Assembly: GCA_010093745.1 (NCBI GenBank)
Contig: MU005969.1
Coordinates: forward strand, 186,001 to 242,698
Direction of reading: 5' to 3'
Source: Piedraia hortae CBS 480.64
Lineage: Eukaryota
DNA length: 56,698 nucleotides
Position numbers and translations under genes: made by a program. Positions 2,853-28,290 of this stretch are shown one piece after another. The notes under the pieces are model-generated. The model saw only the letters and a program-made list of their open reading frames with translations. It searched no databases and was not told where the DNA came from. Numbering within the stretch: the first letter of the stretch is position 1; the number at the start of each line of letters is the position of its first letter.

Positions 2853-4289
2853 TCAGATTTGGGCTGCTCGCGCAGGCTGGTCGAGGAAGGTTCGCACGTT
2901 TTGTGGCAGTAGTTTAAACGGCCACATGGCCTTTTCGTCCGAGAAGCCTCCTACAAAGGCTTGGATGATGAACGCCAGTACGAGGACAATAACGGCGAGG
3001 ATGGTGAGATAGCTCATGTCCAGCCACAGATCGGTATGCATGAGTACGTGTCGACTGGTCTTGTCTGATGCGTTTGATTGCACCAGAGGGAGTCGGTGTA
3101 TGACAACCGTCTGGCCGTAGCTGACCGAGGCAAGGCGGATGGAACTGTCCGACTGAGATTTGAATGGAGAGAAGCAAAGTTTCGTGATCTGCTGCTCGTG
3201 AACGTTCCGCAGCGTGGTGTAGTGCTTCAACGGCGAAAAGGTCTCAGTCCGTTCGTGGTAGTCGGTCACGAAAACGTCGATGCTAACGTCTTGACTGGAA
3301 ATGGCAATGACCACCTGCTGATTGCGAGACTTGTCAGAGTCAAGGGAGCAAACGTCCATGCAGTAGGCTTGCTTGATGCGTGATGGAAGCGCTTTTTCAG
3401 ACAACAATGCAGCCGGACCAGTAGGATAGAGATGGATTATTCGCAGCTCAGCTCCAGTCCTGTTCGGTCTATTGCCTAATATCAGAATGTTCTGCGAGTT
3501 CAGAAACCGAACCGCCCGGAAACGAGACTGGGACAATGTCCTTTCTGTGACGGGCGCTTGGTAAACTCGCCTAGGGCCCTTGGGCAACTTCTCGACTCGC
3601 TTGGTGTCAAAGTGGTATTTGTACGTCTGCTCGCAAATGTCTTTGGACGTGCAGTATGTCAGGCTGAAGACTGTGGATTCTGTCTGGATCAGGTCAAGGT
3701 CTACAGCCTCTTCATTCCTTGCCAAGCTGATGCGTGTAATGACCGATGGGCTCCCACGGGGGTCAAACACAACCACTTCGTTTTGACTTGACATGCTGCT
3801 TGCAATTGCGCCGATAGACAACGAATGTCGTAGTCTCTCCTGTGGAAAGCGAATCAGTCTCTGAAAAGCCTCCTTTTTCGAAGCAGACGAGGGATTGAAC
3901 AGGGAGCATTTCCCAGTCATTTTGGCTCCAGCCTCAGTCTTCTTTTCCTCGTGCAACGGTAACTGGACCTCGAAGCTGCGCAAGTGCTCGTTCCGACCAG
4001 CATTCTGTTCGCTTTGAGAAGAATTGATTCCGGCAAATAATAGCAGCCCTTCATCCGTTGCCAGTCCAGCTAGCGATTGAACAGAGTCTTCCTCCCTTGA
4101 CAGTTCGATATCGGCAACATTTTGGCACGTGTTCGCATCCAGTACGGCAATCTGGTTCTTGACTCCGGCCTTGACTTCCCCTCCGCCGCCTCCAACGACC
4201 AGAAATCCTCGAGACTCGGGGTCAAAATCGGCAGAGTAGATTGGAAATGACAGTCTTGTCTTCGCCGTCGACGCTTTTCGCGAGTACAT
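2853..4289 (-). CDS. SEC12: Sec12/PREB-like guanine nucleotide exchange factor for Sar1 (beta-propeller plus C-terminal TM helix)
   Basis: N-terminal LSFPIYSADFD...LVVGGGGG..KAGVKNQI motif, a VHEQQITKLCF WD-like repeat and a single C-terminal TM segment. First ATG at 4289 (478 aa). Confidence 0.8.
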   Translation of the reverse strand: MYSRKASTAKTRLSFPIYSADFDPESRGFLVVGGGGGEVKAGVKNQIAVLDANTCQNVADIELSREEDSVQSLAGLATDEGLLLFAGINSSQSEQNAGRNEHLRSFEVQLPLHEEKKTEAGAKMTGKCSLFNPSSASKKEAFQRLIRFPQERLRHSLSIGAIASSMSSQNEVVVFDPRGSPSVITRISLARNEEAVDLDLIQTESTVFSLTYCTSKDICEQTYKYHFDTKRVEKLPKGPRRVYQAPVTERTLSQSRFRAVRFLNSQNILILGNRPNRTGAELRIIHLYPTGPAALLSEKALPSRIKQAYCMDVCSLDSDKSRNQQVVIAISSQDVSIDVFVTDYHERTETFSPLKHYTTLRNVHEQQITKLCFSPFKSQSDSSIRLASVSYGQTVVIHRLPLVQSNASDKTSRHVLMHTDLWLDMSYLTILAVIVLVLAFIIQAFVGGFSDEKAMWPFKLLPQNVRTFLDQPARAAQI

Positions 4290-4439
4290 CGTTCTCTTGG
4301 ACCGTCGTCGCAATGACGATGATCCAACGATGGCCGTTCGTTGTTCGGCATTGCAGCCAATCAGATCGATGCGGGACTTGCCGCTGCGGGACTGTCCGGG
4401 TCCACCACAATTTTTCAAAACCCCTGAGACATCACAGCC

Positions 4440-5255
4440 ATGGCATTAGCAGCACCCACGAATGGCTTAAGCGATGAGGAGATTCGGCAAATCTTCCAGG
4501 ACGTCCAAAGGTCCGGCTGGCTTCCAAAGCTGGAAACGAAATCGCTCCCGAAGCCGTACATTTCGTTTGGCAAGGGAGGCGTCTCCAAGCTGGACAGACG
4601 ACGCATGCACCAGGAACGCACAGCGCCGCAGATGCGACAAATGGAGCGAGTCAAAGTCGAGGATCCTATTGTCGTCAAAAAGAGAGCTGCTCAGGTAAGT
4701 CCAGAAACTGCACAAACCCAGGCTGTGATGAAGACTATACGCATCTTCGTTGAGCAGCTGTAGGCGCCGTACTGGCTGTCCTTGCTGTTTCGTGAGACCC
4801 CTTTTATCATAGTTACTCTGAGCCCTAACCAAATCTTGTGCTGCATACTTCTGGGAAGGTCGCTAACCATATGATAGGAAAAGGAAGCGACGGCAGGTCC
4901 AGATTGGCACAATATGCCGCGCACGGTCGACACTCCCCAGCTAAAGCGGGATTGGCAGTTGATCAAGATGCGTGATGTATTAGATCCCAAGCGTCATTAC
5001 AAAAAAGACGGCAAAAAGGATCTGCCAGAGTACAGTCAGGTCGGCACAGTCATCGAAGGCCCGGCCGACTTCTTCTCTGGGCGAATAGAGACGAAGAAGA
5101 GGAAGAGGACGTTCGTGGAAGAGGTTCTGGCCGGTGAGCATGAGACGGGCCGCTTCAAGCGGAAATACAACGAGCTTCAGCAGAAGAAGTCGAGCGGGAA
5201 GAAGGCGTACTACAAGGCGCTCAAGGCGAAGAGGAGCGGCGGGATCAGGAAGTGA
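4440..5255 (+). CDS. FCF2: rRNA-processing protein Fcf2 (2 exons: 4440-4694, 4878-5255)
   Basis: TAGPDWHNMP...LKRDWQLIKMRDVLDPKRHYKK...QVGTVIEGPADFFSGRI is the Fcf2 domain. Intron 4695-4877 (GTAAGT...GCTAAC...TAG) joins the two ORFs in frame. Confidence 0.92.
4721..4824 (+). ncRNA. Intronic box C/D snoRNA, snR63/SNORD46(U46)-like, predicted guide for LSU rRNA Am (yeast A2256 equivalent)
   Basis: Box C GTGATGA at 4725-4731, box D CTGA at 4818-4821 and terminal stem GGC/GCC. The guide TCATAGTTACT before box D is complementary to the conserved LSU sequence AGUAACUAUGA; the D+5 rule points to the second A of GUAAC. Confidence 0.88.
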
Positions 5256-5345
5256 TGAACTAATGAATGGAATGACTGCATGAAGAACGATTGCCCGCTG
5301 TCGATGCCTCTTATCTTACATTGCCACGGGTACCCGTACAGCCCA

Positions 5346-6405
5346 TCACAGCTCCGACACAAGCCTCAGCACCAGATCCTGCATGTCCAAGGCGGCCAGA
5401 CGACCAGCCTCGAGCACTTCTTCATGATCGGCCCGTCCTTGTCTCAGGAAGGTGTCCAGTTCAGCCGGGGAAAGGCCCTTGAGCTTCGGATCGTCAGCGC
5501 GTTGAGTCGGCTCCTGGTTGGCAATGTTTGTAACGAGACTAAAGGCCAGGACCCTCATTCCTCCATGTCTCGCCACGATTATCTCAGGTACGGTGGACAT
5601 GCCCACCACGTCTGCGCCCAGCGTCCTCAACATGCGACATTCGGCTCTCGTCTCGTACGTAGGTCCAGCAGCAAAGGCATACACGCCCTCATGCAAGCGT
5701 CGGTTGCTCGGCTTCTCGCTGCGCAGTCGATTCCAAACGTCGTGGGCGAGCATGCGGAGTGAAAGGTCATAAGCATCGCTCAGCGGAGGGAATCTTGGGC
5801 CCAGTTCATCGTCATTAGGCCCGCGTAGAGGATGGAACCCGGCCAAGCCAGCGAGGTTGATGTGGTCGTTTAAGAGCACAATATCACCAACCGAATACGA
5901 AGGATCCAACCCTCCTGCCGCGTTGGTGAGGACAAGAGTCTTCACCCCGATGGCGCAACAGATGCGCGTGGCAAAGGTGATAACTGCGAGGTCGTGGCCT
6001 TCGTAGAAACTGGGACATTGGGCATTAGAAATCAGTTGATAATGGTTAAGAGCTACATACTGTACGCGACCAACAAACAGGACAACTGGGACTTTTTGCG
6101 TGCCCATGGTTCCGAACAAGAGCTTTCCCTGATGTCCAGAGACTGGATTCGTAGTTAGTTTTGTCCGTTCTTAAAGCAGTGAGATGTATACCGCTAGATA
6201 CGGGAAAGTTGGGGATAGAACTATATGGCCAGGATTGTCCCTCGGGCTCCATATCCAGGACATCTGCGAGGCCGCCCAGTCCCGAGCCGCAGACTACAGC
6301 AACACGGGGCCGGGCGAGTCGTTCGGGGAGATGGGAGCGTAGGAAATCGACCGTTTCTTGCACTTTGTAGGCTTGAACATTGCTTTCCTGGTGGGCATCG
6401 TCCAT
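5346..6405 (-). CDS. PNP1: Purine nucleoside phosphorylase (3 exons: 6405-6192, 6142-6061, 6009-5346)
   Basis: VVCGSGLGGL, IPNFPVS, GRVHFYEGH (after splicing), LTNAAGG, GPTYET and DVVGMSTVPE motifs. Introns 6191-6143 (49 nt) and 6060-6010 (51 nt) have GT/AG ends and CTAAC/CTAAT branch sites. Confidence 0.95.
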
Positions 6406-6577
6406 TGCGTGGGATAAATGGGAGAAGGAATGGTACAGGCTGGTCAGGTGGTGGAGTATTTCCAGCATTGTGACAGTGACTGAATGGTCGTGTCACGTTC
6501 AACAGCCAATCAGTGACGACACCTTCTCAAAGCGGCTAGCGGCAGGCCTACCTCGCACCAGACACTCGAACGCGACA

Positions 6578-7291
6578 ATGGCCACCCTGGTGCGGTCGCT
6601 GGGCTGCTTAACCAGACACAGCCTCCCAAAAACCACCAGCATTACTCTGGCCCCCCGCCGATGGCAGAGCACAACCCCCTCACCCTCCGAGATCCGCCTC
6701 CCCCGCGCCATCCAAGCAACCTATCTCGACCCCCTCCGCCGCCGTCCTGAAGGCTACCACACCCTCCCCGTAACCTGCGACCTCCAAATCCGCTCCTACA
6801 GCGTGCGCAATCTAGAAGTCTACTCCGACTTTGCCATGCGGGCGGCCTATTACCTCAACCTCGTCGCCATCGGACCCCTACCCCTTCCCAAACTCCGCAC
6901 CCTCACAACCGTAATCCGCGGTCCATTCGTCCACAAAAAAAGCCAAGAGAATTTTGAGCGTATAACTCGTCGACGACGGATAGAAATACGCGGCGGTCAT
7001 CCAGATGCGGTAGCTGCTTGGTTGGCATTTGTTAAGAAGCACAGGTACTACGGCATCGGGATGAAAGCAAATGTGTTCGAGTACAGCGGGTTGGACGTAG
7101 GAAAAGATATGGATGCTGAATCCGTGAGGATCAGCGAGCGTCTAGGTGATGAGTTCGACCTCGTGGGAGGGAAGATGTCAGATGAAGAGATGGAGAGGCA
7201 GCTCAAACAGCATATGCAGAATGCCCAGGCGGGGAAGTATGGTGCCATGAGCGAGCTGTCGAACCGGATCGAGAAATATGTTGTACAGTAG
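6578..7291 (+). CDS. RSM10: Mitochondrial ribosomal protein S10 (uS10m)
   Basis: CDLQIRSYSVRNLE...AAYYLNL..GPLPLP...TVIRGPFVHKKSQENFERIT S10 signature, with an Arg/Ser/Thr-rich presequence starting at ATG 6578. Confidence 0.92.
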   Translation: MATLVRSLGCLTRHSLPKTTSITLAPRRWQSTTPSPSEIRLPRAIQATYLDPLRRRPEGYHTLPVTCDLQIRSYSVRNLEVYSDFAMRAAYYLNLVAIGPLPLPKLRTLTTVIRGPFVHKKSQENFERITRRRRIEIRGGHPDAVAAWLAFVKKHRYYGIGMKANVFEYSGLDVGKDMDAESVRISERLGDEFDLVGGKMSDEEMERQLKQHMQNAQAGKYGAMSELSNRIEKYVVQ

Positions 7292-7443
7292 AATAGCGAT
7301 CACTTTCCTCCCCCTATATTCCCCCCACATCCTCCCCCTTTTCGTCCGCGAGCGATTCTTACCCCTGCCTTCATCCCGTGCCCACACATTTCACAGAGGA
7401 GTATCGCAGAAAATCCACCTATCTCAAATTAAAAAGTGGTAGG

Positions 7444-7820
7444 TTATCTCTTCTTCTTTCCCCCCTTCGCCCTCGATTCTACACCTCATTAGCCTCCCCA
7501 CCCCCAATCATCACTGATAGATACTCACCAGCCCCACTCCTCTTCTTCCGCGGATTCCCCTTCCCCCTCTTCTTCCGCGCCTCTAAATCCTCTAATCTCG
7601 TCTCCTCTTTCTCATCATACAAATCATAATTAGGATACAGCCCTTTCAACTCCCTAAAAGTCGCCACGCGGCGGGGGTAATACGCTGAGAGTAACGCCCC
7701 GCGAAGCGGCTGCTTTAGAATCTTATTGCCCAAGCGGAGGGCGGAAGGGTTGAAGATTGTGTTGAAGACTTTGCTTTGAATCTGCTGGAGAGTAAGGATT
7801 AGGGGGCGAGGGACGGACAT
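7444..7820 (-). CDS. RSM27: Mitochondrial ribosomal protein S27/mS33 (exons 7820-7529, 7478-7444)
   Basis: VFNTIFNPSALRLGNKILKQPLRG...YYP...RKKRGKGNPRKK. The 50-nt intron 7528-7479 (GTGAGT...GCTAAT...TAG) gives the C-terminus ESRAKGGKKKR*. Confidence 0.88.
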
Positions 7821-7876
7821 GTCTGACTGGATATCTTTCACCTAAAGGTGAGGTCGCCCAGCTTACGGGTTTGAAA

Positions 7877-8097
7877 TTAGGGTTAGGATGACTTAAAGGT
7901 AGGGTTAGCATTGGATTGACCTCTGAGTTCCGCGTAAATTCTCCCGCACATGTTGCGAGCAGGCCACGACCATTGTGGGCTTACAGTTGATTTCGTGACT
8001 TTCAGTGGCGCAGGAGCGGAAGAGGGAGGGCGATTACCAGGGCGGCGAGAAGAGGCAGTCGAGCGTGAGGTGGCCCAACCACGGGTTAGGGTTAGAA
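7877..8097. promoter_or_regulatory. Clustered TTAGGG motifs in the divergent RSM27 / RNase III promoter (possible Tbf1-type sites)
   Basis: TTAGGGTTAGG at ~7877, TAGGGTTAG at ~7900 and GGGTTAGGGTTAG at ~8083 lie within a 350-bp divergent intergenic region. Confidence 0.45.
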
Positions 8098-8169
8098 TTG
8101 GGGTAGTCCGTGGGGAGGGTTTCGCACAAAATTCTTCCGCTCTCCCCACAGGCTTTTTTTTCGTGGGAG

Positions 8170-9282
8170 ATGGCGCAGAAGCGGAAGAGAGATAGTGATA
8201 ACCCCCACGACGGTAGCGATGCAAATCGGGGGGCGAAATCAATGGGTCGCGTGCCGCCTTACCGCCCTCTCAACACACAGGGTGGCTTCCCCCCCGTGAA
8301 ATATTTCCCGCCAGAACTTCCTACTATTCAAGATCCAGACCTGGCCGTCCTTCCGTTTCGTCATAAGAGTCTCACACAAGACTATAACCGCTCCATCCCA
8401 ACGGGTCAAACCTACGATGATCTTGAGTTCCTTGGTGACGCGCAGATTGAACTTATGGCTTCACGACTGCTAGTCGCGCGCTACCCGAATGTGCTTGCGG
8501 GACACAAATCCCAGCTGAGAGAATTACTCGTCAAGAACGAAACACTTGCCGAATTTGCGAAGATGTATAACTTCGATTCTCGCATTCCTGCTCTTAATCA
8601 AGGCAAGGCATTTGCCGGGGTTTCGAAGGGTGGTAAAGGGAATAAGGGCTTTTTAAAGGTGATGGCGGACATGTTCGAAGCGTATGTCGCCGCCGTGGTG
8701 CTTGATGGGGGGGATGAGGGGTTTGAGATTGCGGAAAGGTGGCTTACGGAGTTGTGGGGGAGAAAGTTGTGTCGGGTTATGGGGGACTATCCGGGCCTTA
8801 CTCCGGTGGGGAGGGATAACTGCTCTGCTGCGGTGGAGCATACCTTTTCCGCTGCGGTTGGGGAAGATTCGTGCCCTGCTGCGGTGGAGCATACCAACCC
8901 TACTGCGCTGAGTGATCATCCCTGCAGTAATGACAGTCCCCTAAGGACATTTGATCATAAAGCAAAGCAGACTCTGCAGCGTCGAATCCTCTCTGGACCT
9001 GGCGTGAGGCTGGTTTACAAACCTTATAAACCAGCTGAGGAACTCAAGGGGGACAGAATCGGACAGAATCGCCATTTCATTGGGGTTTATTTGACGGGGT
9101 TTGGTTATACTGATTTTGAGCTGGGGAGAGGGGAGGGAAGGAATAAAACCGAGGCGGGGTGTTGGGCTGCCATCAGAGCGATGTGGGGGGAACATAAACA
9201 TGTTGTGGATGCATGTGCGGCAAAGGTTGAGGGGTATAGGGAACGGTTGAGGAGGGAGAGGGAGGGTGACGGGACAGGATAA
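8170..9282 (+). CDS. Ribonuclease III (Rnt1/Pac1-like; RNase III domain plus degenerate dsRBD)
   Basis: YDDLEFLGDA and ADMFEAYVAAV carry the four acidic catalytic residues; LVKNETLAEFA is present; the C-terminal AKQTLQ...LGRGEGRNKTEAG..AA is dsRBD-like. Confidence 0.9.
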   Translation: MAQKRKRDSDNPHDGSDANRGAKSMGRVPPYRPLNTQGGFPPVKYFPPELPTIQDPDLAVLPFRHKSLTQDYNRSIPTGQTYDDLEFLGDAQIELMASRLLVARYPNVLAGHKSQLRELLVKNETLAEFAKMYNFDSRIPALNQGKAFAGVSKGGKGNKGFLKVMADMFEAYVAAVVLDGGDEGFEIAERWLTELWGRKLCRVMGDYPGLTPVGRDNCSAAVEHTFSAAVGEDSCPAAVEHTNPTALSDHPCSNDSPLRTFDHKAKQTLQRRILSGPGVRLVYKPYKPAEELKGDRIGQNRHFIGVYLTGFGYTDFELGRGEGRNKTEAGCWAAIRAMWGEHKHVVDACAAKVEGYRERLRREREGDGTG

Positions 9283-9354
9283 GAAAGAGTAAGTGACCGT
9301 TTCGATGTTTTCTTTACCTTTTTTTTTTTTTTTGTTTTTGTGTTTGGGAATACC

Positions 9355-9489
9355 CGCCCTCGTATATCTGCCCGGTCTGTATTTCTATTGCGGACGCGGT
9401 TCCTGGAAACGAGGGAGATTAATCAGAGTCATGTTGAGAAAATCGTTGCTTCGGCTGTGGGGCGATGGTGGTTTTTGGCTCTGACATAC
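9355..9489 (+). ncRNA. Box H/ACA snoRNA copy 1 (snR43/SNORA9-like; predicted LSU pseudouridylation guide)
   Basis: Hairpin 1 CCCTCGT(9357)/ACGAGGG(9409), H box AGATTA 9416-9421, hairpin 2 AGAGTCA/TGGCTCT, ACA 9484-9486. Pocket 1 (CTGC + TCCTG) fits LSU CAGGA-U-A-GCAG (yeast Psi966). Pocket 2 (TTGAGAA + GGTT, 14 nt from ACA) fits LSU RACC-U-A-UUCUCAA. Confidence 0.8.
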
Positions 9490-9605
9490 ATACATTTGTA
9501 GGTGGGTGTTTCCTTCGAATAAATGAATCTCCTCATCGATCAGTCTCTCAGGGAGATGTAAGGCTGACGGGACAGGAAATGGGTAAGTGACCGTTTCGAT
9601 GTCTT

Positions 9606-9650
9606 TTTTCTTTTCTTTTCTTTTCTTTTCTTTTCTTTTCTTTTCTTTTC

Positions 9651-9682
<32 letters not shown>
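9606..9682. repeat. (TTTTC)13 microsatellite plus poly-T
   Basis: Directly visible; it corresponds to the T-rich tract of the first copy of the duplicated unit. Confidence 0.95.
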
Positions 9683-9706
9683 GGTATTTCTCTCTCATTG
9701 CTGATC

Positions 9707-9842
9707 CACCCTCGTATATCTGCCCGGTCAGCATGCTAATTGCTGACGCGGTTCCTGGAAACGAGGGAGATGAACAGAGTCATGTTGAGAAAACCATTTC
9801 TTCGCTCCATGAAGATGATGGTGGTTTTTGGCTCTTACATAG
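9707..9842 (+). ncRNA. Box H/ACA snoRNA copy 2 (paralog of copy 1)
   Basis: CCCTCGT(9709)/ACGAGGG(9761), H box AGATGA 9768-9773, ACA 9837-9839. Pocket sequences are identical to copy 1. Upper stems differ but still pair (GTCAGCA/TGCTGAC vs GTCTGTA/TGCGGAC; ACCATT/GATGGT vs ATCGTT/GATGGT). Confidence 0.8.
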
Positions 9843-9985
9843 CTATCTCTACCACAACGAATCTCCCCATCAATCATCTCTCCCACCAACAATTACACCT
9901 CCTTTCCACATCTATAGTCTCACCTCCCCACTTCTAGTCAAACAAACGTAACCCCCCATCCATCAGTCTCCCCCCTCCCATTACT

Positions 9986-11164
9986 CTACTTTCCCCCCCT
10001 CCTCTTCCCACCGCTTTTCGGGAATACCAACGGTACCCTCAATCGCGCGACCCTCATCCCCAACCCCTGAGCCTTAGATAACCCGACCTCCCCCAACTCC
10101 TTCAACGTCGGCGCAGCAACCTTACACCCCAACTCCCTAAAAAACTTAGTAATCTCCTCGTCCGAAACCCTCAAATCGTCCCTCAACTCCCCCGTCCACA
10201 CAACAAACCCCTCAGCCCTCAACGCAAGCGCACAAATCCAAATCCTGAGTTTTTCAAAATTCCATTTCGGGAGTTCGCCTCCTACCGCGAAGCGGTTTCT
10301 CACCCCCTCGATCGCTTGTGGAGAGAATTCTTCCCCGAGTTTTTTGAGCAGGACTTCGCGTTTGGGGATTTTTTTCGGCATTCGGCCCGTGAGGGTATCG
10401 TGGAAGGAGAGTAAGAGGTGTAGATACCTCAACGCCAACAACCTCTCATCATCCCCACTCCGCACAACAGCGACGACATGCTTTGCTGGGTATCTATGGT
10501 GAAATTTTATCTCCTCACCCCCATGCACGCTTTTAACCCACTTCTCCGTCGAGAGCTGTTTCGCGACTTGAGGGGGGATCAGTTCCCCAAAGGGGTAGGC
10601 GTCTTCGACACGTGTGGCGGCTGGGTTTGGCTTTGGGATGGGTTTAGCGTTCAGTTGGATTTCTGCCTGGTTGGGAGGAGGGTCGAGTTCGTCGAGGGAG
10701 GCCAGGATTTCAGGTTGGGGGGCTGTGGAGGTTATTGCGTTGCGCGATTTGTCGAGTAAAGCTTTCTGCGCTTTTTTCGTGCCAAATTCGAGACCGAGGG
10801 CTTCACGTTGGGACTTGGGGTTGCGGGTGATGGCTGTTGGGAGGGATGCTTTGCGGGTGTGGGCACGGAGGGTTAATTTTTCGATGGGACGAATTTGGGT
10901 GGTGAGGGTTTTGGGGTTGTGGAGGACCATGTAGTGCTTGAGGTGCGGATCGGGGGTAGGGTGGGCGGTATAGTCTAGCCGAGGGTGCGAGGAGGTGTGC
11001 AAGATTCTGTCCGACTTTTTGGTGTAGGCTTGAAAGGTGATGTCGGTCGGGGCGACGATGCCGGGGGTGTTGAGTAGGATTGCATGCGGCCCGGGAGGTT
11101 CGGTGTACTTTGCGACAAGTTGGCTATCATCGCGCTTGCGCTTTTTGCTTTCTTTGGAGGACAT
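9986..11164 (-). CDS. RPA49: RNA polymerase I subunit A49
   Basis: LHTSSHPRLDYT, REALGLEFGTKKAQKAL, PIPKPNPAATRVEDAYP and LRDDLRV...FFRELGC...ARLRVPLVFP; single 392-aa ORF. Confidence 0.9.
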   Translation of the reverse strand: MSSKESKKRKRDDSQLVAKYTEPPGPHAILLNTPGIVAPTDITFQAYTKKSDRILHTSSHPRLDYTAHPTPDPHLKHYMVLHNPKTLTTQIRPIEKLTLRAHTRKASLPTAITRNPKSQREALGLEFGTKKAQKALLDKSRNAITSTAPQPEILASLDELDPPPNQAEIQLNAKPIPKPNPAATRVEDAYPFGELIPPQVAKQLSTEKWVKSVHGGEEIKFHHRYPAKHVVAVVRSGDDERLLALRYLHLLLSFHDTLTGRMPKKIPKREVLLKKLGEEFSPQAIEGVRNRFAVGGELPKWNFEKLRIWICALALRAEGFVVWTGELRDDLRVSDEEITKFFRELGCKVAAPTLKELGEVGLSKAQGLGMRVARLRVPLVFPKSGGKRRGGK

Positions 11165-11389
11165 GGTGATTGGTCTGCGGAGAAATTTTTGGTGCTGTAT
11201 GCGGAGATGCGGGTAGATCCGTAGATCCGTAGATCCGCTGCAGCTTCATCCATCCAGGGCTGGAAGGCTCATTTCCCACGGCAGGGCCAATCAAGACCAG
11301 GATGACGGACAAACCGGTTTCTGGCGTGACGTCAGTGTGCTACGGTATCCTGCCATTGCGCGTTTGCCTGAGCTTCTCCAAGCATCATC

Positions 11390-12261
11390 ATGGCCTCGAC
11401 TGAGATCCCTCGAGTTCCTACTACCGGCGCGACCAACGGCTCCGGCGCAGAGTGGCCGCAGCAGACGCAGACGCAGACGCAACAGCCTCCGGTTTACTCC
11501 GCGGCCATGTCCTCGTTGAACACTGAAGATGGCTCTGCAAACTCGGCCGCGCGGAGGCCTTACCATAACCTGACGGGCGCTTCGTCGCCGCAAATGGCCG
11601 AGTTTCGCGACCGCCAGGTTTCGCGCGGCATTCGTCGGCCCAACGAGGATGTGCTCTCAGGCAGCGATGTCACACGCATTCCCGTGCGGCGCACCAACGA
11701 AGAATACTCCTCTTCGGGCGATTACAACCGCGGAGTTGCGGCGTCAAGCGGTTCTGTTGCAAATGAACTGCGCAGTCGCTTGGAGAAACACGCCAACGAA
11801 ACGCTCACCAAGGGCCAGGAAACGCTCGACAGGTTCTTTCCACCGGAGCAGCGTGCCATGCGTCAGCGTCAGCTGCATGAATTCTCCCTGCGCAATCCCA
11901 AGCTCTCGGTATATCTATCCTTCCATCTCTGACTCGTGATCTGACTCAATGACAGGCTTTTCTCGGCACCAACCTCGCACTTACAGGCATCCCACTGGCT
12001 CTCTTCTTTCTCTTCGCCCTGGGAGTGACAGTCTTCTGCCTCGCCACAGGTGTCTGTCTCGGCCTCCTTGCCGCCCTTCCATTCATCGGCATGGCCGTCG
12101 GCGCCGCTCTACTTATCCTCCTACCCACCATCGCCATCACCACCCTAACAGCCTGCTTCTTCTGCTTCTGGGGCCTGGTCGGTGTCTACCTCCTGCGCTG
12201 GTTCAACGGCGAAGACAGCAGCAACAGCAGCAACCGCCGCGTCGTCTCCTACAAACATTAG
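11390..12261 (+). CDS. Promethin/LDAF1(Ldo)-like lipid-droplet membrane protein (exons 11390-11908, 11956-12261)
   Basis: LDRFFPPEQR...RNPKLS|AFLGTNLALTGIPLALFFLFA...LLPT long hydrophobic hairpins; the 47-nt intron 11909-11955 (GTATAT...CTGAC...CAG) restores the frame. Confidence 0.7.
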
Positions 12262-12347
12262 ACATGTGTCATAACTAAACACCTAATCCTCATGTAATTT
12301 CATTCCCCATGTAGCCGTACTCATCCTTACAATACACCACCTATGTC

Positions 12348-12884
12348 CTACCCCCTGTTCCTCTCCAAATTAACAACCATCCCCTCCATTCCCATCTCCC
12401 TCTCCAAAACCCCATACTCAACCAACTTCCTCTCCAACTTCCCCAGACTAAATCCACTCTGCTCCTCCCGCCCCCCTCCCAACCCCTCGAAACCCGTAAT
12501 CCTCGCAACGCTCTTCCCGCCCACAAATCCCATCACACACGGCAACACCCTCACCTTCAGTCTCTCAACGACCCACGGCGCCTCCGTAGCCTCTAACCTC
12601 ACAAACCTCGTCTCAACATGTCTCTTCGCTAGCTGCTCAAGTGCGGTATCCATCGTCCTGCACCTCGCGAACTCCTCTTTCGCGAAATGTACCACGCATC
12701 GCGCCTCGGTTGTAGTTAAAGTCAGGAGCTCGGATTCGGAGGTATATCTGTCGTAGGACCCGTGGCCCGGGAGGGAGAGGTAGTCCCTGTGTCGGGCGGC
12801 TTCGCGCGCGAGTTCTTCGCGACGGGCAGAGGTGAGGGAGTCGAGGGTGGGATCGGATTCGTCGTCAAATGTTGGGGAGGACAT
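12348..12884 (-). CDS. Phosducin-like / thioredoxin-domain protein (Plp1/TXNDC9-like)
   Basis: GHGSY...CVVHF...FARCRTMDTALEQLAKRHVETRF...APWVVERLKVRVLPCV...ITGFEGL; ATG at 12884. Confidence 0.85.
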   Translation of the reverse strand: MSSPTFDDESDPTLDSLTSARREELAREAARHRDYLSLPGHGSYDRYTSESELLTLTTTEARCVVHFAKEEFARCRTMDTALEQLAKRHVETRFVRLEATEAPWVVERLKVRVLPCVMGFVGGKSVARITGFEGLGGGREEQSGFSLGKLERKLVEYGVLEREMGMEGMVVNLERNRG

Positions 12885-13295
12885 GTTTGCGAAGAGGCGC
12901 TTTTCTGGGTTTGGAGGTTTTTCTGAGCGCGGGTCGGACCGGAAGGGGGATTCTTGGTTTGGAGCGGTGAGAGTTTGGAGAGTTAAATAAATGCAGCGGG
13001 ATTGTGCAGATGCAGGCAGGGATGCAGGCAAGCTGCAGATTTTTTGCTGCGAATATTTGCGCTCGGGATTAATGTCAAGGGGGCAGGAAGTACTGGTCTT
13101 GTAACTGTTACCGAGAGAAGCTATAGACTTGAATGACGTATGGGACGGAATGGTTCCGTGACAGTTAATCAGGTCGTGGGGGGCCAGCACAAACTTTTGA
13201 CTTTTGGCATATCATAGGGGTAAAAGTAGCTTGGAAGGACGCTGGTCGCATGCTTCTACGGTCGATAATGCTCTCACTGTGGGTTAAGTGTCAGC

Positions 13296-14376
13296 TTAAA
13301 ATGCATCTGGTTTGCATCGTTTGAGGCACGACGATTGCAATTCAGCAATGCAAAAAGCGGTAGCGTGGCCCATGAACACCAAGGGCGTAAGAAGGCAACG
13401 ACCTAACCCAGAGCAATCCTTCTCGTAGATGGGAAACCGGGCTGGCTCGTGTGAATAACCTCGTTTCAGCCGGCGGCCAATGACCAGGGTCGCAAGTCTA
13501 TTGGAGGGCTGGCGAAAAGCCTCCACTACCAGAGAAAGTACGGACATCGTGTGAAGTATAGTCGTTCGCCCGGCTGGGACCAAACAAATTGGTCGAGCGT
13601 GGTGAATTTTTTCGGCGAATGGGCCCGGCATCACACAACAGCCCACCCAAAAGTGACCTGAGGGAGAGACCACATTGACGGCAAAAAAGAGCCCCAAAGA
13701 CTCCTCTGCAGGCAAAAGTCAGCACATTCGATGAGGTATACTCGTCTAAACGTTCGCCTGGCTGAGACGAAACGCATCGACCAAGCATGGGTGTTATCTG
13801 AGGAAATGGGCAGGCGAGAGGTTGCAAAAGCCTCGGACAATAAATCCAACAGTCCAATAAGTTAGGGATATGCGGATGTCAAGCTTGAAATGCCGGAGAC
13901 TTTCAGCTTTCGACGGCAGTGCGGCTTGGCGAAGAATGCGTATCGTTCGGTTGGGGCGATGGCGGCTTGGATGCAATTGACTGCTGTCCCAGTGTCGACC
14001 AGAGCTTGGATCTCCTTTCCGTCGATAAGAACCGAAATGCGTTCCGCGCCTTGTACGTCGCTGTCGGCCACCGAGATGCGGTCGATGGCCTTGCTACCTT
14101 GTGTGGTCTTGGCATAACAATCCTTTGATTGATGTCCAAGTCGATGGCATCTTCTGCGCTTCTGCGAGCTGCCTTTACGCTTGCGATGACGGCGGTTGCA
14201 ACGGTGGGATGAAAACCACATCCCTCGGTCTATCGTGTTTTATGAAGAGTCCATGACAAGGTAAACAAATTTTCAATGCTCCGAGATCTTTTAACTAGGG
14301 GCACATGATTCGTGGAGGTCATTATGCTGATTGGCTGACATTCCGTTTCGACCCACTTGAAGATGTCACGGGTAGG
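13296..14376 (-). mobile_element. Degenerate Ty3/gypsy retrotransposon gag-pol (zinc knuckle, protease, eroded RT)
   Basis: CHRLGHQSKDC (CCHC knuckle remnant) and VLIDGKEIQALVDTGTAVNCI (retropepsin DTG), followed by frameshifted RT-like fragments (DLLSEAFA, CVMPGP). Many stops and frameshifts. Confidence 0.75.
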
Positions 14377-26737: not shown

Positions 26738-28290
26738 TCAAAACATCTTTCTCATCTCATAATCCACATTCGTGGTCCTCACAACCGCAATCGTCTCCGG
26801 TTTGTGCAGTCTTTCATCCTCACCCTCATCATCGGCTTGATCAACGCACGTCGTCGGTGCGCTTCGATGGTTCGATCGCAGGGTCCCTTCTTGTGGAGCG
26901 TAGCTTTGACATTCGTATGATGAGCTTTTGCGTGTTAGTGATGTTGTGCGGCGGAGCACGATGGCGAATTCGGGAATGCAGGCTGCTATTATTGCTGTTT
27001 AATCAGTTAGCATGGAATAAAGAGAGGAGGTGGGTGGACTGGGATTAGGGGGAGGGGGGGNNNNNNNNNNNNNNNNNNNNNNNNNNNNNNNNNNNNNNNN
27101 NNNNNNNNNNNNNNNNNNNNNNNNNNNNNNNNNNNNNNNNNNNNNNNNNNNNNNNNNNNNNNNNNNNNNNNNNNNNNNNNNNNNNNNNNNNNNNNNNNNN
27201 NNNNNNNNNNNNNNNNNNNNNNNNNNNNNNNNNNNNNNNNNNNNNNNNNNNNNNNNNNNNNNNNNNNNNNNNNNNNNNNNNNNNNNNNNNNNNNNNNNNN
27301 NNNNNNNNNNNNNNNNNNNNNNNNNNNNNNNNNNNNNNNNNNNNNNNNNNNNNNNNNNNNNNNNNNNNNNNNNNNNNNNNNNNNNNNNNNNNNNNNNNNN
27401 NNNNNNNNNNNNNNNNNNNNNNNNNNNNNNNNNNNNNNNNNNNNNNNNNNNNNNNNNNNNNNNNNNNNNNNNNNNNNNNNNNNNNNNNNNNNNNNNNNNN
27501 NNNNNNNNNNNNNNNNNNNNNNNNNNNNNNNNNNNNNNNNNNNNNNNNNNNNNNNNNNNNNNNNNNNNNNNNNNNNNNNNNNNNNNNNNNNNNNNNNNNN
27601 NNNNNNNNNNNNNNNNNNNNNNNNNNNNNNNNNNNNNNNNNNNNNNNNNNNNNNNNNNNNNNNNNNNNNNNNNNNNNNNNNNNNNTGGGAGACAAACCAT
27701 TAGAGCTGTTCCAGTGGTACATGTTCTCGCAGGAGACGAAATTACTCACGACTGCGACGATCCATGACTGTTTCGTCGTTAGCGGAGTGCGATGTAGGAG
27801 GAGGTTGGGGGCTTTTGGGGAGGGGAACTTCGGGGGAAATACGATTGGGGAGACATACCAGCAAGCAAAACACAAAAACAGCCCACCACCACCGAATATA
27901 ATGCGGCAGTCTGATCATAAGTTTCCTGTAGAGAAACAAAAACGAAAACTTGACCGCCCAAAGAATCGCCCAAAGCAGTTCCGTCGTCGCCAGCATTACC
28001 GGAACCGTAATATGCACATCCTCAATAATCCCCTCATAAGGAGCCATGGACCCGACTTCGACAGCTGAGATTTTGTACATTTTCCGTACGATGACGAGAT
28101 AGCATATGCACATCCCTAAAAAGAAGATGTAGGCGATTGAGATGAAGACGTCTTCGGGTTGAAGTCTGGGTTGTTTGGAGCTTAGACGGCCACAGAAACG
28201 GCCGAAGAAGGAGATGGTGGTTAGGATGATCATGGCGATCGCCGCGGCGCGGACGGTGCCTTGCGTACTGAAGTTTTCGGCGGAGCCCAT
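26738..28290 (-). CDS. PTH11-like integral membrane protein (fungal rhodopsin domain), interrupted by the assembly gap
   Basis: R..GR...LQPEDVFISIA, LWAVKFSFLFLYRKL; intron 27858-27768; exon SWIVAVVSNFVSC. The last exon, after CTAAC...CAG (26995), begins IIAACIP, the family's TM7 motif. Confidence 0.8.
27061..27685. other. Assembly gap (625 N)
   Basis: Run of N. Confidence 1.

Follow-up and report, generated by a model that had tools for sequence, protein, structure and literature searches.

The DNA analysed here is a stretch of 56,698 nucleotides (the window) from contig MU005969.1 of Piedraia hortae CBS 480.64, within a 16.9-Mb fungal assembly. It carries a gene for RNase III, directly followed on the same strand by a tandem pair of H/ACA snoRNA elements, and the convergent gene for Rpa49. 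The features to which we refer are listed below in window coordinates, with the evidence for each.

8170..9282, + strand: RNase III coding sequence (CDS), intronless, Rnt1/Pac1-type, 370 aa, the presumed host (open reading frame, PF00636, alignment with relatives)
9253..9549, + strand: duplication unit 1, with the last CDS codons, stop, donor, snoRNA 1 and spacer (local alignments of both ends)
9289..9294, + strand: GTAAGT 1, a 5' splice-site consensus 66 nt 5' of snoRNA 1, putative donor (alignment)
9355..9489, + strand: H/ACA snoRNA copy 1, two-hairpin form of snR43/Nc ACA9 (Rfam, fold, nhmmer E 3.5e-13)
9363..9405, + strand: hairpin-1 pocket of copy 1, with 9363-9371 as its 5' strand and a 3' strand that begins at 9400; predicted to guide 25S U966 and 5.8S U73 (pocket pairing)
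9416..9421, + strand: copy 1 H box; the 3' pocket strand starts 16 nt away (motif)
9434..9473, + strand: last-hairpin pocket of copy 1, with 9434-9440 as its 5' strand and a 3' strand that begins at 9470; predicted to guide U1039 of the LSU in yeast numbering (pocket pairing)
9484..9486, + strand: copy 1 ACA box; 14 nt separate it from the 3' pocket (motif)
9550..9882, + strand: duplication unit 2 (local alignments)
9563..9575, + strand: predicted branch site GCTGAC and acceptor CAG, end of putative intron 1 (sequence, alignment)
9576..9582, + strand: predicted 7-nt non-coding exon (from the flanking signals)
9583..9588, + strand: GTAAGT 2, a 5' splice-site consensus 124 nt 5' of snoRNA 2 (alignment)
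9707..9842, + strand: H/ACA snoRNA copy 2 (H box 9768-9773, ACA 9837-9839), pockets as in copy 1 (fold, nhmmer E 6.4e-15)
9918..9937, + strand: weak candidate branch site TCTCAC and acceptor TAG of putative intron 2 (sequence)
9986..11167, - strand: Rpa49 (Pol I A49) gene, convergent on RNase III (protein domain match, RNA contig)

The nearest named relatives of the RNase III are those of dothideomycete black fungi, at ~47% identity, and its C-terminal tail is among the shortest across 15 aligned relatives. The gene has no intron: one RNA contig spans 7529-9262 unspliced. The same contig links RNase III to the divergent MRP-S33 gene through a common upstream region of 330 nt, reflecting either overlapping 5' ends or an assembly join; this region holds several GGGTTAG/TTAGGG repeats (7879-7908, 8084-8096). 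Within the CDS, at 8800-8930, lies an in-frame, lineage-specific insert with two imperfect repeats (SAAVEHT/PAAVEHT) that is found in none of 14 aligned relatives. Elsewhere in the window, a 1-kb tract at 27001-28000 has 19% G+C, compared with ~54% for the window as a whole.

An earlier note on this DNA had described a unit that starts in the last RNase III codons and recurs just downstream, each copy carrying a splice donor, a T-rich tract and a hairpin-H box-hairpin-ACA element. Alignment agrees with this description: GACGGGACAGGA occurs at 9268 and again at 9566, GTAAGT stands at 9289 (with 6 nt between stop and donor) and at 9583, T-rich tracts are present in each copy, and the two elements lie at 9355-9489 and 9707-9842. 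There are indeed two copies of the unit, each longer than had been claimed (~9253-9549 and ~9550-9882). Identity between them is distributed very unevenly. The donor 20-mer is identical at 20/20 positions, the hairpin-1 lower stem at 21/21, the hairpin-1 pocket at 28/30 and the last-hairpin pockets at 18/18 and 20/21, as against 8/14 and 15/26 for the upper stems; in sum, pockets, boxes and donor block reach 93-100% and the upper stems 57-58%, with substitutions in the latter that keep the pairing. The flanks were said to have diverged, which is true of the spacers adjoining the snoRNAs (14/31 on the 5' side and 10/35 beyond the ACA, or 29-45%) and untrue of a distal spacer piece that is still identical at 24/28 positions (86%). 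Conserved pockets and boxes, set against diverged and still paired upper stems, suggest that both copies are apparently under selection, as had been proposed. The identity between copies also runs 14 nt past the donor hexamer (9289-9308 and 9583-9602), a stretch with no evident pairing partner in the folds.

Both copies adopt the hairpin-hinge-hairpin-tail fold of box H/ACA snoRNAs (z -3.2 and -3.6; equally stable shuffles, 0/200), with an ANANNA H box in the hinge and an ACA near the 3' end, spaced 16 and 14 nt from the pockets. DNA and pattern searches of the assembly found no copies beyond these two. Of the families that had been put forward as candidates, snR43 is borne out by the best Rfam match, by motifs shared with Nc ACA9 and by an independent profile. 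The Rfam result holds in part: snR43 (RF01256) is the best match for copy 1, at 24.9 bits against a gathering score of 60 bits, and copy 2 is unlisted. The model, which has three hairpins over 207 positions, seems to miss filamentous-fungal members in general, since only 1/8 homologs tested receives an snR43 match (33.3 bits for a full-length homolog) and 7/8 are unlisted. An nhmmer profile of 39 homologs, from which the window copies were excluded, finds both in 477 kb of their own genome (E 3.5e-13 and 6.4e-15), and the hairpin-1 base pairs covary across these 39 sequences, with 31 cells changed on both sides and 0/500 shuffles doing as well.

The closest characterized relative is Nc ACA9 of Neurospora crassa (EU780988), an intronic 'orphan' of 201 nt that has been cloned and detected on northern blots, and for which the table and supplement that describe it name neither a host gene nor a target (PMC2780460, Table 2 and supplement 2). 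Compared by eye, it agrees with the window copies in the stems and both pocket strands of hairpin 1, in the context of the H box and in the 3' pocket of the last hairpin. It differs in its length and in having a middle hairpin, whereas the window copies are ~135 nt long, tandem and outside coding introns. The snoStrip family HACA_9 has been linked to snR43 (PMC5824354) and, judging by its numbering, probably includes Nc ACA9. The window copies share with this family a homologous hairpin 1 carrying the U966/5.8S U73 pocket and lack its three-hairpin architecture. Saccharomyces cerevisiae snR43 (RF01256; in HACA_9 with Schizosaccharomyces pombe AJ632018) is likewise their best Rfam match, and their hairpin-1 pocket fits its sites, 25S U966 and 5.8S U73; the yeast RNA differs in the three-hairpin model that describes it, to which copy 1 scores so low, and in being independently transcribed and Rnt1-processed (PMC5934358). 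The best explanation, which we hold with moderate confidence as a whole, is that both elements are functional guides of the snR43 (Nc ACA9) family for rRNA pseudouridylation, and as such would be expressed.

A pattern search of metagenomes for hairpin 1 yielded at least 117 loci, with long flanks for 80. Among the listed loci, 90 passed a filter on stem and H box, representing 66 distinct ones, and 27 were set aside, at least two of which are real homologs. No tandem pair occurs among the 117 loci listed, each of which gave one match. The earlier note had looked to synteny of the snoRNA with RNase III in related fungi, and this expectation fails: ten RNase III queries that do match the window match 0/117 of the listed loci, where 21/66 distinct loci have at least 2.5 kb upstream and the exon directly upstream is still identifiable. 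What flanks the snoRNA instead are exons of derlin (Pfam DER1), in 61/66 distinct listed loci by peptide motif, 61/66 by tblastn and 64/66 by either. The usual host of the family in other filamentous ascomycetes is a derlin intron, with a single three-hairpin copy. All complete homologs listed (60/60) measure 189-231 nt, the other 6 of the 66 being cut by contig ends, and the middle hairpin follows the H box at its expected position in 88/90 listed loci; the remaining two represent one divergent form of 231 nt. This hairpin is missing from both window copies, so its loss may well have preceded the duplication, and no three-hairpin copy was found elsewhere in the incomplete assembly by pattern or DNA search.

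The P. hortae genome has two derlins. The ortholog, on contig C60, keeps an intron at the same place, which is 72 nt long and contains no snoRNA, and the protein groups with the snoRNA-bearing, LYS9-flanked derlins (support 89 in a quick tree without bootstrap, made from 49 rows of at least 110 residues). A snoRNA remnant in the emptied intron was sought and rejected, as local similarity was no better than in shuffles (782 and 147 of 1000). LYS9 lies upstream of derlin in this genome and in 12/68 loci, where 28 of the 68 have at least 1.5 kb upstream, and Rpa49 lies downstream of the derlin-hosted snoRNA in 3/68 loci, in a sister clade, with at least 2.5 kb downstream available in 22 of the 68; LYS9, derlin and Rpa49 are not found together at any single locus. 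The P. hortae derlin (C60 ~75200-76700, L197) faces a convergent gene for succinyl-CoA ligase alpha, and neither this gene nor a PIG-X-like gene proved to be a conserved downstream neighbour (0/68 loci). Scans of viral contigs gave chance matches only.

Neither two patterns nor an LSU model recovered rDNA from the P. hortae assembly, and guide targets were therefore tested on fungal rDNA contaminating other assemblies. On these rRNAs of other fungi, bipartite antisense pairing is found around both U966 and U1039. Hairpin 1 pairs with 6+4 bp around LSU U966, tied first among 1366 uridines in one rDNA unit and 1167 in another, and with 3+5 bp around 5.8S U73, where three sites score higher. We predict from this complementarity that it guides 25S U966 and 5.8S U73, the sites of yeast snR43 (tables of PMC8307265 and PMC5699541). 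The last hairpin pairs with 3-4+7 bp around LSU U1039 (yeast numbering taken from yeast-like contigs), which is the top site in 28/61 sequences, both window copies among them, and ranks first by summed score on each of the two rRNA sets, in a ranking that sets pocket edges by a crude rule, drops one sequence and includes a subgroup of 9-10 with a different 5' pocket. If the pocket offsets are relaxed, U1039 (24-26) is outscored by an 18S uridine whose pairs are mostly G-U (28). The last hairpin probably guides U1039, which would then be modified in P. hortae; the tables of yeast modification sites in PMC8307265 and PMC5699541 do not contain it.

A SNORA9-type double guide, for which the earlier note had left room, was dropped because pocket geometry and ranking place the best site of the last pocket at U1039 and not at U1042. 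Human SNORA9 and yeast snR33 (clan CL00027), together with human SNORA47, do resemble the window copies in having two hairpins, the second of which addresses the A-site finger, and the first guide of SNORA9 presumably addresses the U966-equivalent site. Yeast snR33 nevertheless guides U1042, whereas the second pocket here closes on U1039, 3 nt earlier. By numbering, we take U1039 to be human 28S Psi1779. The latter modification is guided by SNORA47 (PMC9941101).

Among the homologs, the 5' pocket of the last hairpin varies by clade. About 10 loci (L036, L039, L080, L085, L090, L110, L111, L139 and others) carry GGAUG, a group that ranks another LSU uridine first, and L082 and L131 carry AUAGGU, which can pair with the stretch immediately 5' of U1039. 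Retargeting through such clade-specific 5' pockets is possible.

That the RNase III transcript carries the snoRNAs, as the earlier note proposed, is most likely in view of spacing and splice signals, with splicing itself predicted. GTAAGT occurs at 0.116 per kb in 457 kb of the genome, and consensus and spacing place donor, branch site and acceptor at the workable distances expected around an intron-encoded snoRNA, the last acceptor being weak. From donor to snoRNA there are 66 and 124 nt, compared with 31-106 in the 43/60 homologs for which it could be resolved, so that donor 2 falls outside the range; from ACA to AG there are 89 and 98 nt, compared with 44-128 (58/60 resolved). Only 72 nt separate the stop from snoRNA 1, which leaves little room for a promoter 5' of it. 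The duplicated end of the CDS can be read, in copy 2, as a branch site (9563-9568), a CAG ending at 9575, a 7-nt exon and a donor; 9563-9575 is homologous to the last CDS codons, where the hexamer is GGTGAC. The branch-to-AG distance at 9575 is 8 nt, compared with 10-15 in five RNA-supported introns, and such short spacing is nonetheless enriched in the same 457 kb (6 seen vs 2.3 expected), the 4-nt branch-to-YAG spacer of copy 2 falling near the lower limit of the lengths that are enriched. For putative intron 2, the pentamer CTCAC is a minor branch sequence in this genome and the acceptor at 9937 is weak. Taken together, these signals make it rather likely that both snoRNAs are housed in introns of the RNase III 3' UTR.

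Competing signals exist, namely a GTAGGT at 9498 and a TAG at 9501 whose branch hexamer lies on the ACA box of copy 1. The latter was rejected as the productive 3' site of intron 1, being 15 nt from the ACA, compared with 44-128 in homologs, with its branch on the ACA box. The GTAGGT at 9498 would form an ordinary 78-nt intron with the branch site and acceptor at 9563-9575, and the TAG at 9501 abuts the GT at 9502; alternative or recursive splicing routes for intron 1 are possible.

RNA coverage came from a single run over 4000-13500, in the form of assembled contigs only, with the repeats at 9306-9353 and 9597-9696 skipped and two loose ends dropped. The record does not name it as RNA, and it behaves as spliced RNA because five introns are skipped: the listed pieces (8 of 24) contain five spliced joints in neighbouring genes. 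Among the same 8 of 24 pieces of this contig-only, repeat-skipped run, no joint starts from 9289 or 9583. An unspliced contig at 9709-11154 crosses the predicted last acceptor and runs from Rpa49 into copy 2; contigs can establish neither strand nor ends nor absence, and this one is most simply the Rpa49 3' UTR. A fall in summed contig depth after 9262 was discarded as not usable for judging expression.

The same signals and contigs bear on other routes to the snoRNAs. They might be cut from unspliced read-through of the RNase III 3' UTR, or freed by a first-step-only spliceosomal cut at the donors, and then trimmed, such that polyadenylated mRNA and snoRNA would be alternative products. The lack of a junction among the listed pieces, the presence of contigs over all 30 bins of the region, acceptors weaker than the donors and two N. 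crassa H/ACA RNAs reported in 3' UTRs (PMC2780460) would all fit this route, which we nevertheless consider improbable, if deserving of some weight, given that a perfect donor with intron-like spacing is kept in both copies and that a consensus branch hexamer is present in copy 2 and missing at the corresponding place in copy 1. It also seems quite unlikely that the pair belongs to a non-coding spliced host transcript of its own, with its start in the 3' portion of the RNase III CDS and independent of the RNase III mRNA. Promoter evidence is absent, and the family rides in a protein gene in 64/66 homologs listed. Such non-coding hosts are common in filamentous fungi (PMC2780460), and a branch-like hexamer is found together with a CAG at the CDS end; the RNA contig that covers the CDS does stop at 9262, but a contig end cannot show a transcript start. 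Least credible of all is a single active copy, with the other a recent redundant duplicate or silenced, copy 2 by antisense Rpa49 3'-UTR RNA or copy 1 by branching on its ACA box. The unspliced contig joining Rpa49 to copy 2 and the branch-like hexamer overlapping the copy 1 ACA box, 15 nt before a TAG, could be read this way. Against this, pockets and boxes are near-identical while the upper stems differ at ~40% of sites with pairing kept in both, a pattern that requires selection on both copies.

The earlier note had gone further and proposed that this arrangement feeds back on RNase III through autoregulation or NMD. In such a circuit, RNase III would free the snoRNAs by cleaving its own pre-mRNA, or NMD would be provoked by the introns in the 3' UTR, coupling enzyme level and snoRNA output. 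The idea is kept alive by the Rnt1 dependence of yeast snR43 (PMC5934358), the EJC acts in N. crassa NMD (PMC6173133), and RNase III and Rpa49 are both rRNA-biogenesis genes. The predicted junctions, however, lie 6 and 13 nt after the stop, too near to trigger EJC-type NMD, which is elicited by junctions at least 50 nt downstream (PMC6173133). Nor did general folds of the flanks give any sign of an RNase III site, showing only short irregular stems and no long regular one, and the RNase III arrangement is absent at 117/117 loci listed. We therefore regard a feedback circuit as very unlikely. Equally little credence attaches to its most elaborate form, in which the RNase III gene captured a snoRNA that is an RNase III substrate in yeast, made 3'-UTR introns for it by duplicating the end of the CDS and at present releases it by cleaving or splicing the RNase III pre-mRNA, tying enzyme level to snoRNA output, the lost middle hairpin having been a dispensable chaperone module of fungal snR43. 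Autoregulation of RNase III is not demonstrated by the present evidence. The RNase III link is lineage-specific, and the snoRNA is probably a passenger of this gene and not its regulator; a ride in a gene for ribosome biogenesis is enough to account for the data.

The interpretation that we favour overall, and think probable, is that relocated passengers of the snR43 family now ride in 3'-UTR introns of RNase III. On the simplest reading, an ancestral block LYS9-derlin(snoRNA)-Rpa49 would have split after local copying of the intron segment, parting the snoRNA from derlin, with LYS9-derlin now on contig C60 and snoRNA-Rpa49 here. The snoRNA would have lost its middle hairpin and ended up downstream of a donor that lies 6 nt past the stop of RNase III. 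Duplication in tandem, starting inside the last codons, may then have created the second copy, and the copied CDS end could have supplied a branch site, an acceptor and a 7-nt exon, giving each snoRNA its own 3'-UTR intron. Release would proceed by ordinary splicing, debranching and trimming, with the snoRNAs as passengers. Changes of snoRNA host are known (PMC3511168, PMC13736004, PMC8476143). The present case resembles the 'constrained drift' form of host switching (PMC3511168; PMC13736004), in which an intronic snoRNA leaves its old host for another broadly expressed or ribosome-related gene. It differs in that the move was seemingly a local rearrangement beside an old neighbour gene that emptied the old intron, and in that the new introns lie in a 3' UTR, with an acceptor drawn from a duplicated CDS end.

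At the level of literature listings and abstracts, we found no report of a derlin-hosted or RNase III-hosted snoRNA, of the U1039 site or of such an arrangement; the supplements of PMC5824354 may already hold U1039. The family itself is already known, with expression in N. crassa, and its host arrangement in P. hortae is new. The locus offers a clean, synteny-dated change of host for a fungal snoRNA, in which the old intron was emptied and one hairpin lost, and new 3'-UTR introns were apparently made from a duplicated CDS end. For the 'orphan' Nc ACA9 family, the analysis provides derlin as host, U966 and 5.8S U73 as predicted targets and, within the A-site finger, U1039 as a new site that can be tested. 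The window copies also constitute a natural deletion for probing the role of the conserved middle hairpin.

In the three-hairpin homologs, the loop of the middle hairpin is itself conserved, with a TCGC core in 56/60 (e.g. L074:4855-5057(-), L035:4855-5062(-)). By raw pairing count, it can form at least 8 Watson-Crick pairs with LSU over U1004, between the two guided sites, in 46/56, and it pairs with 18S near nt 88-96 in 42/56, a segment that we take to be the one bound by U14 domain A.
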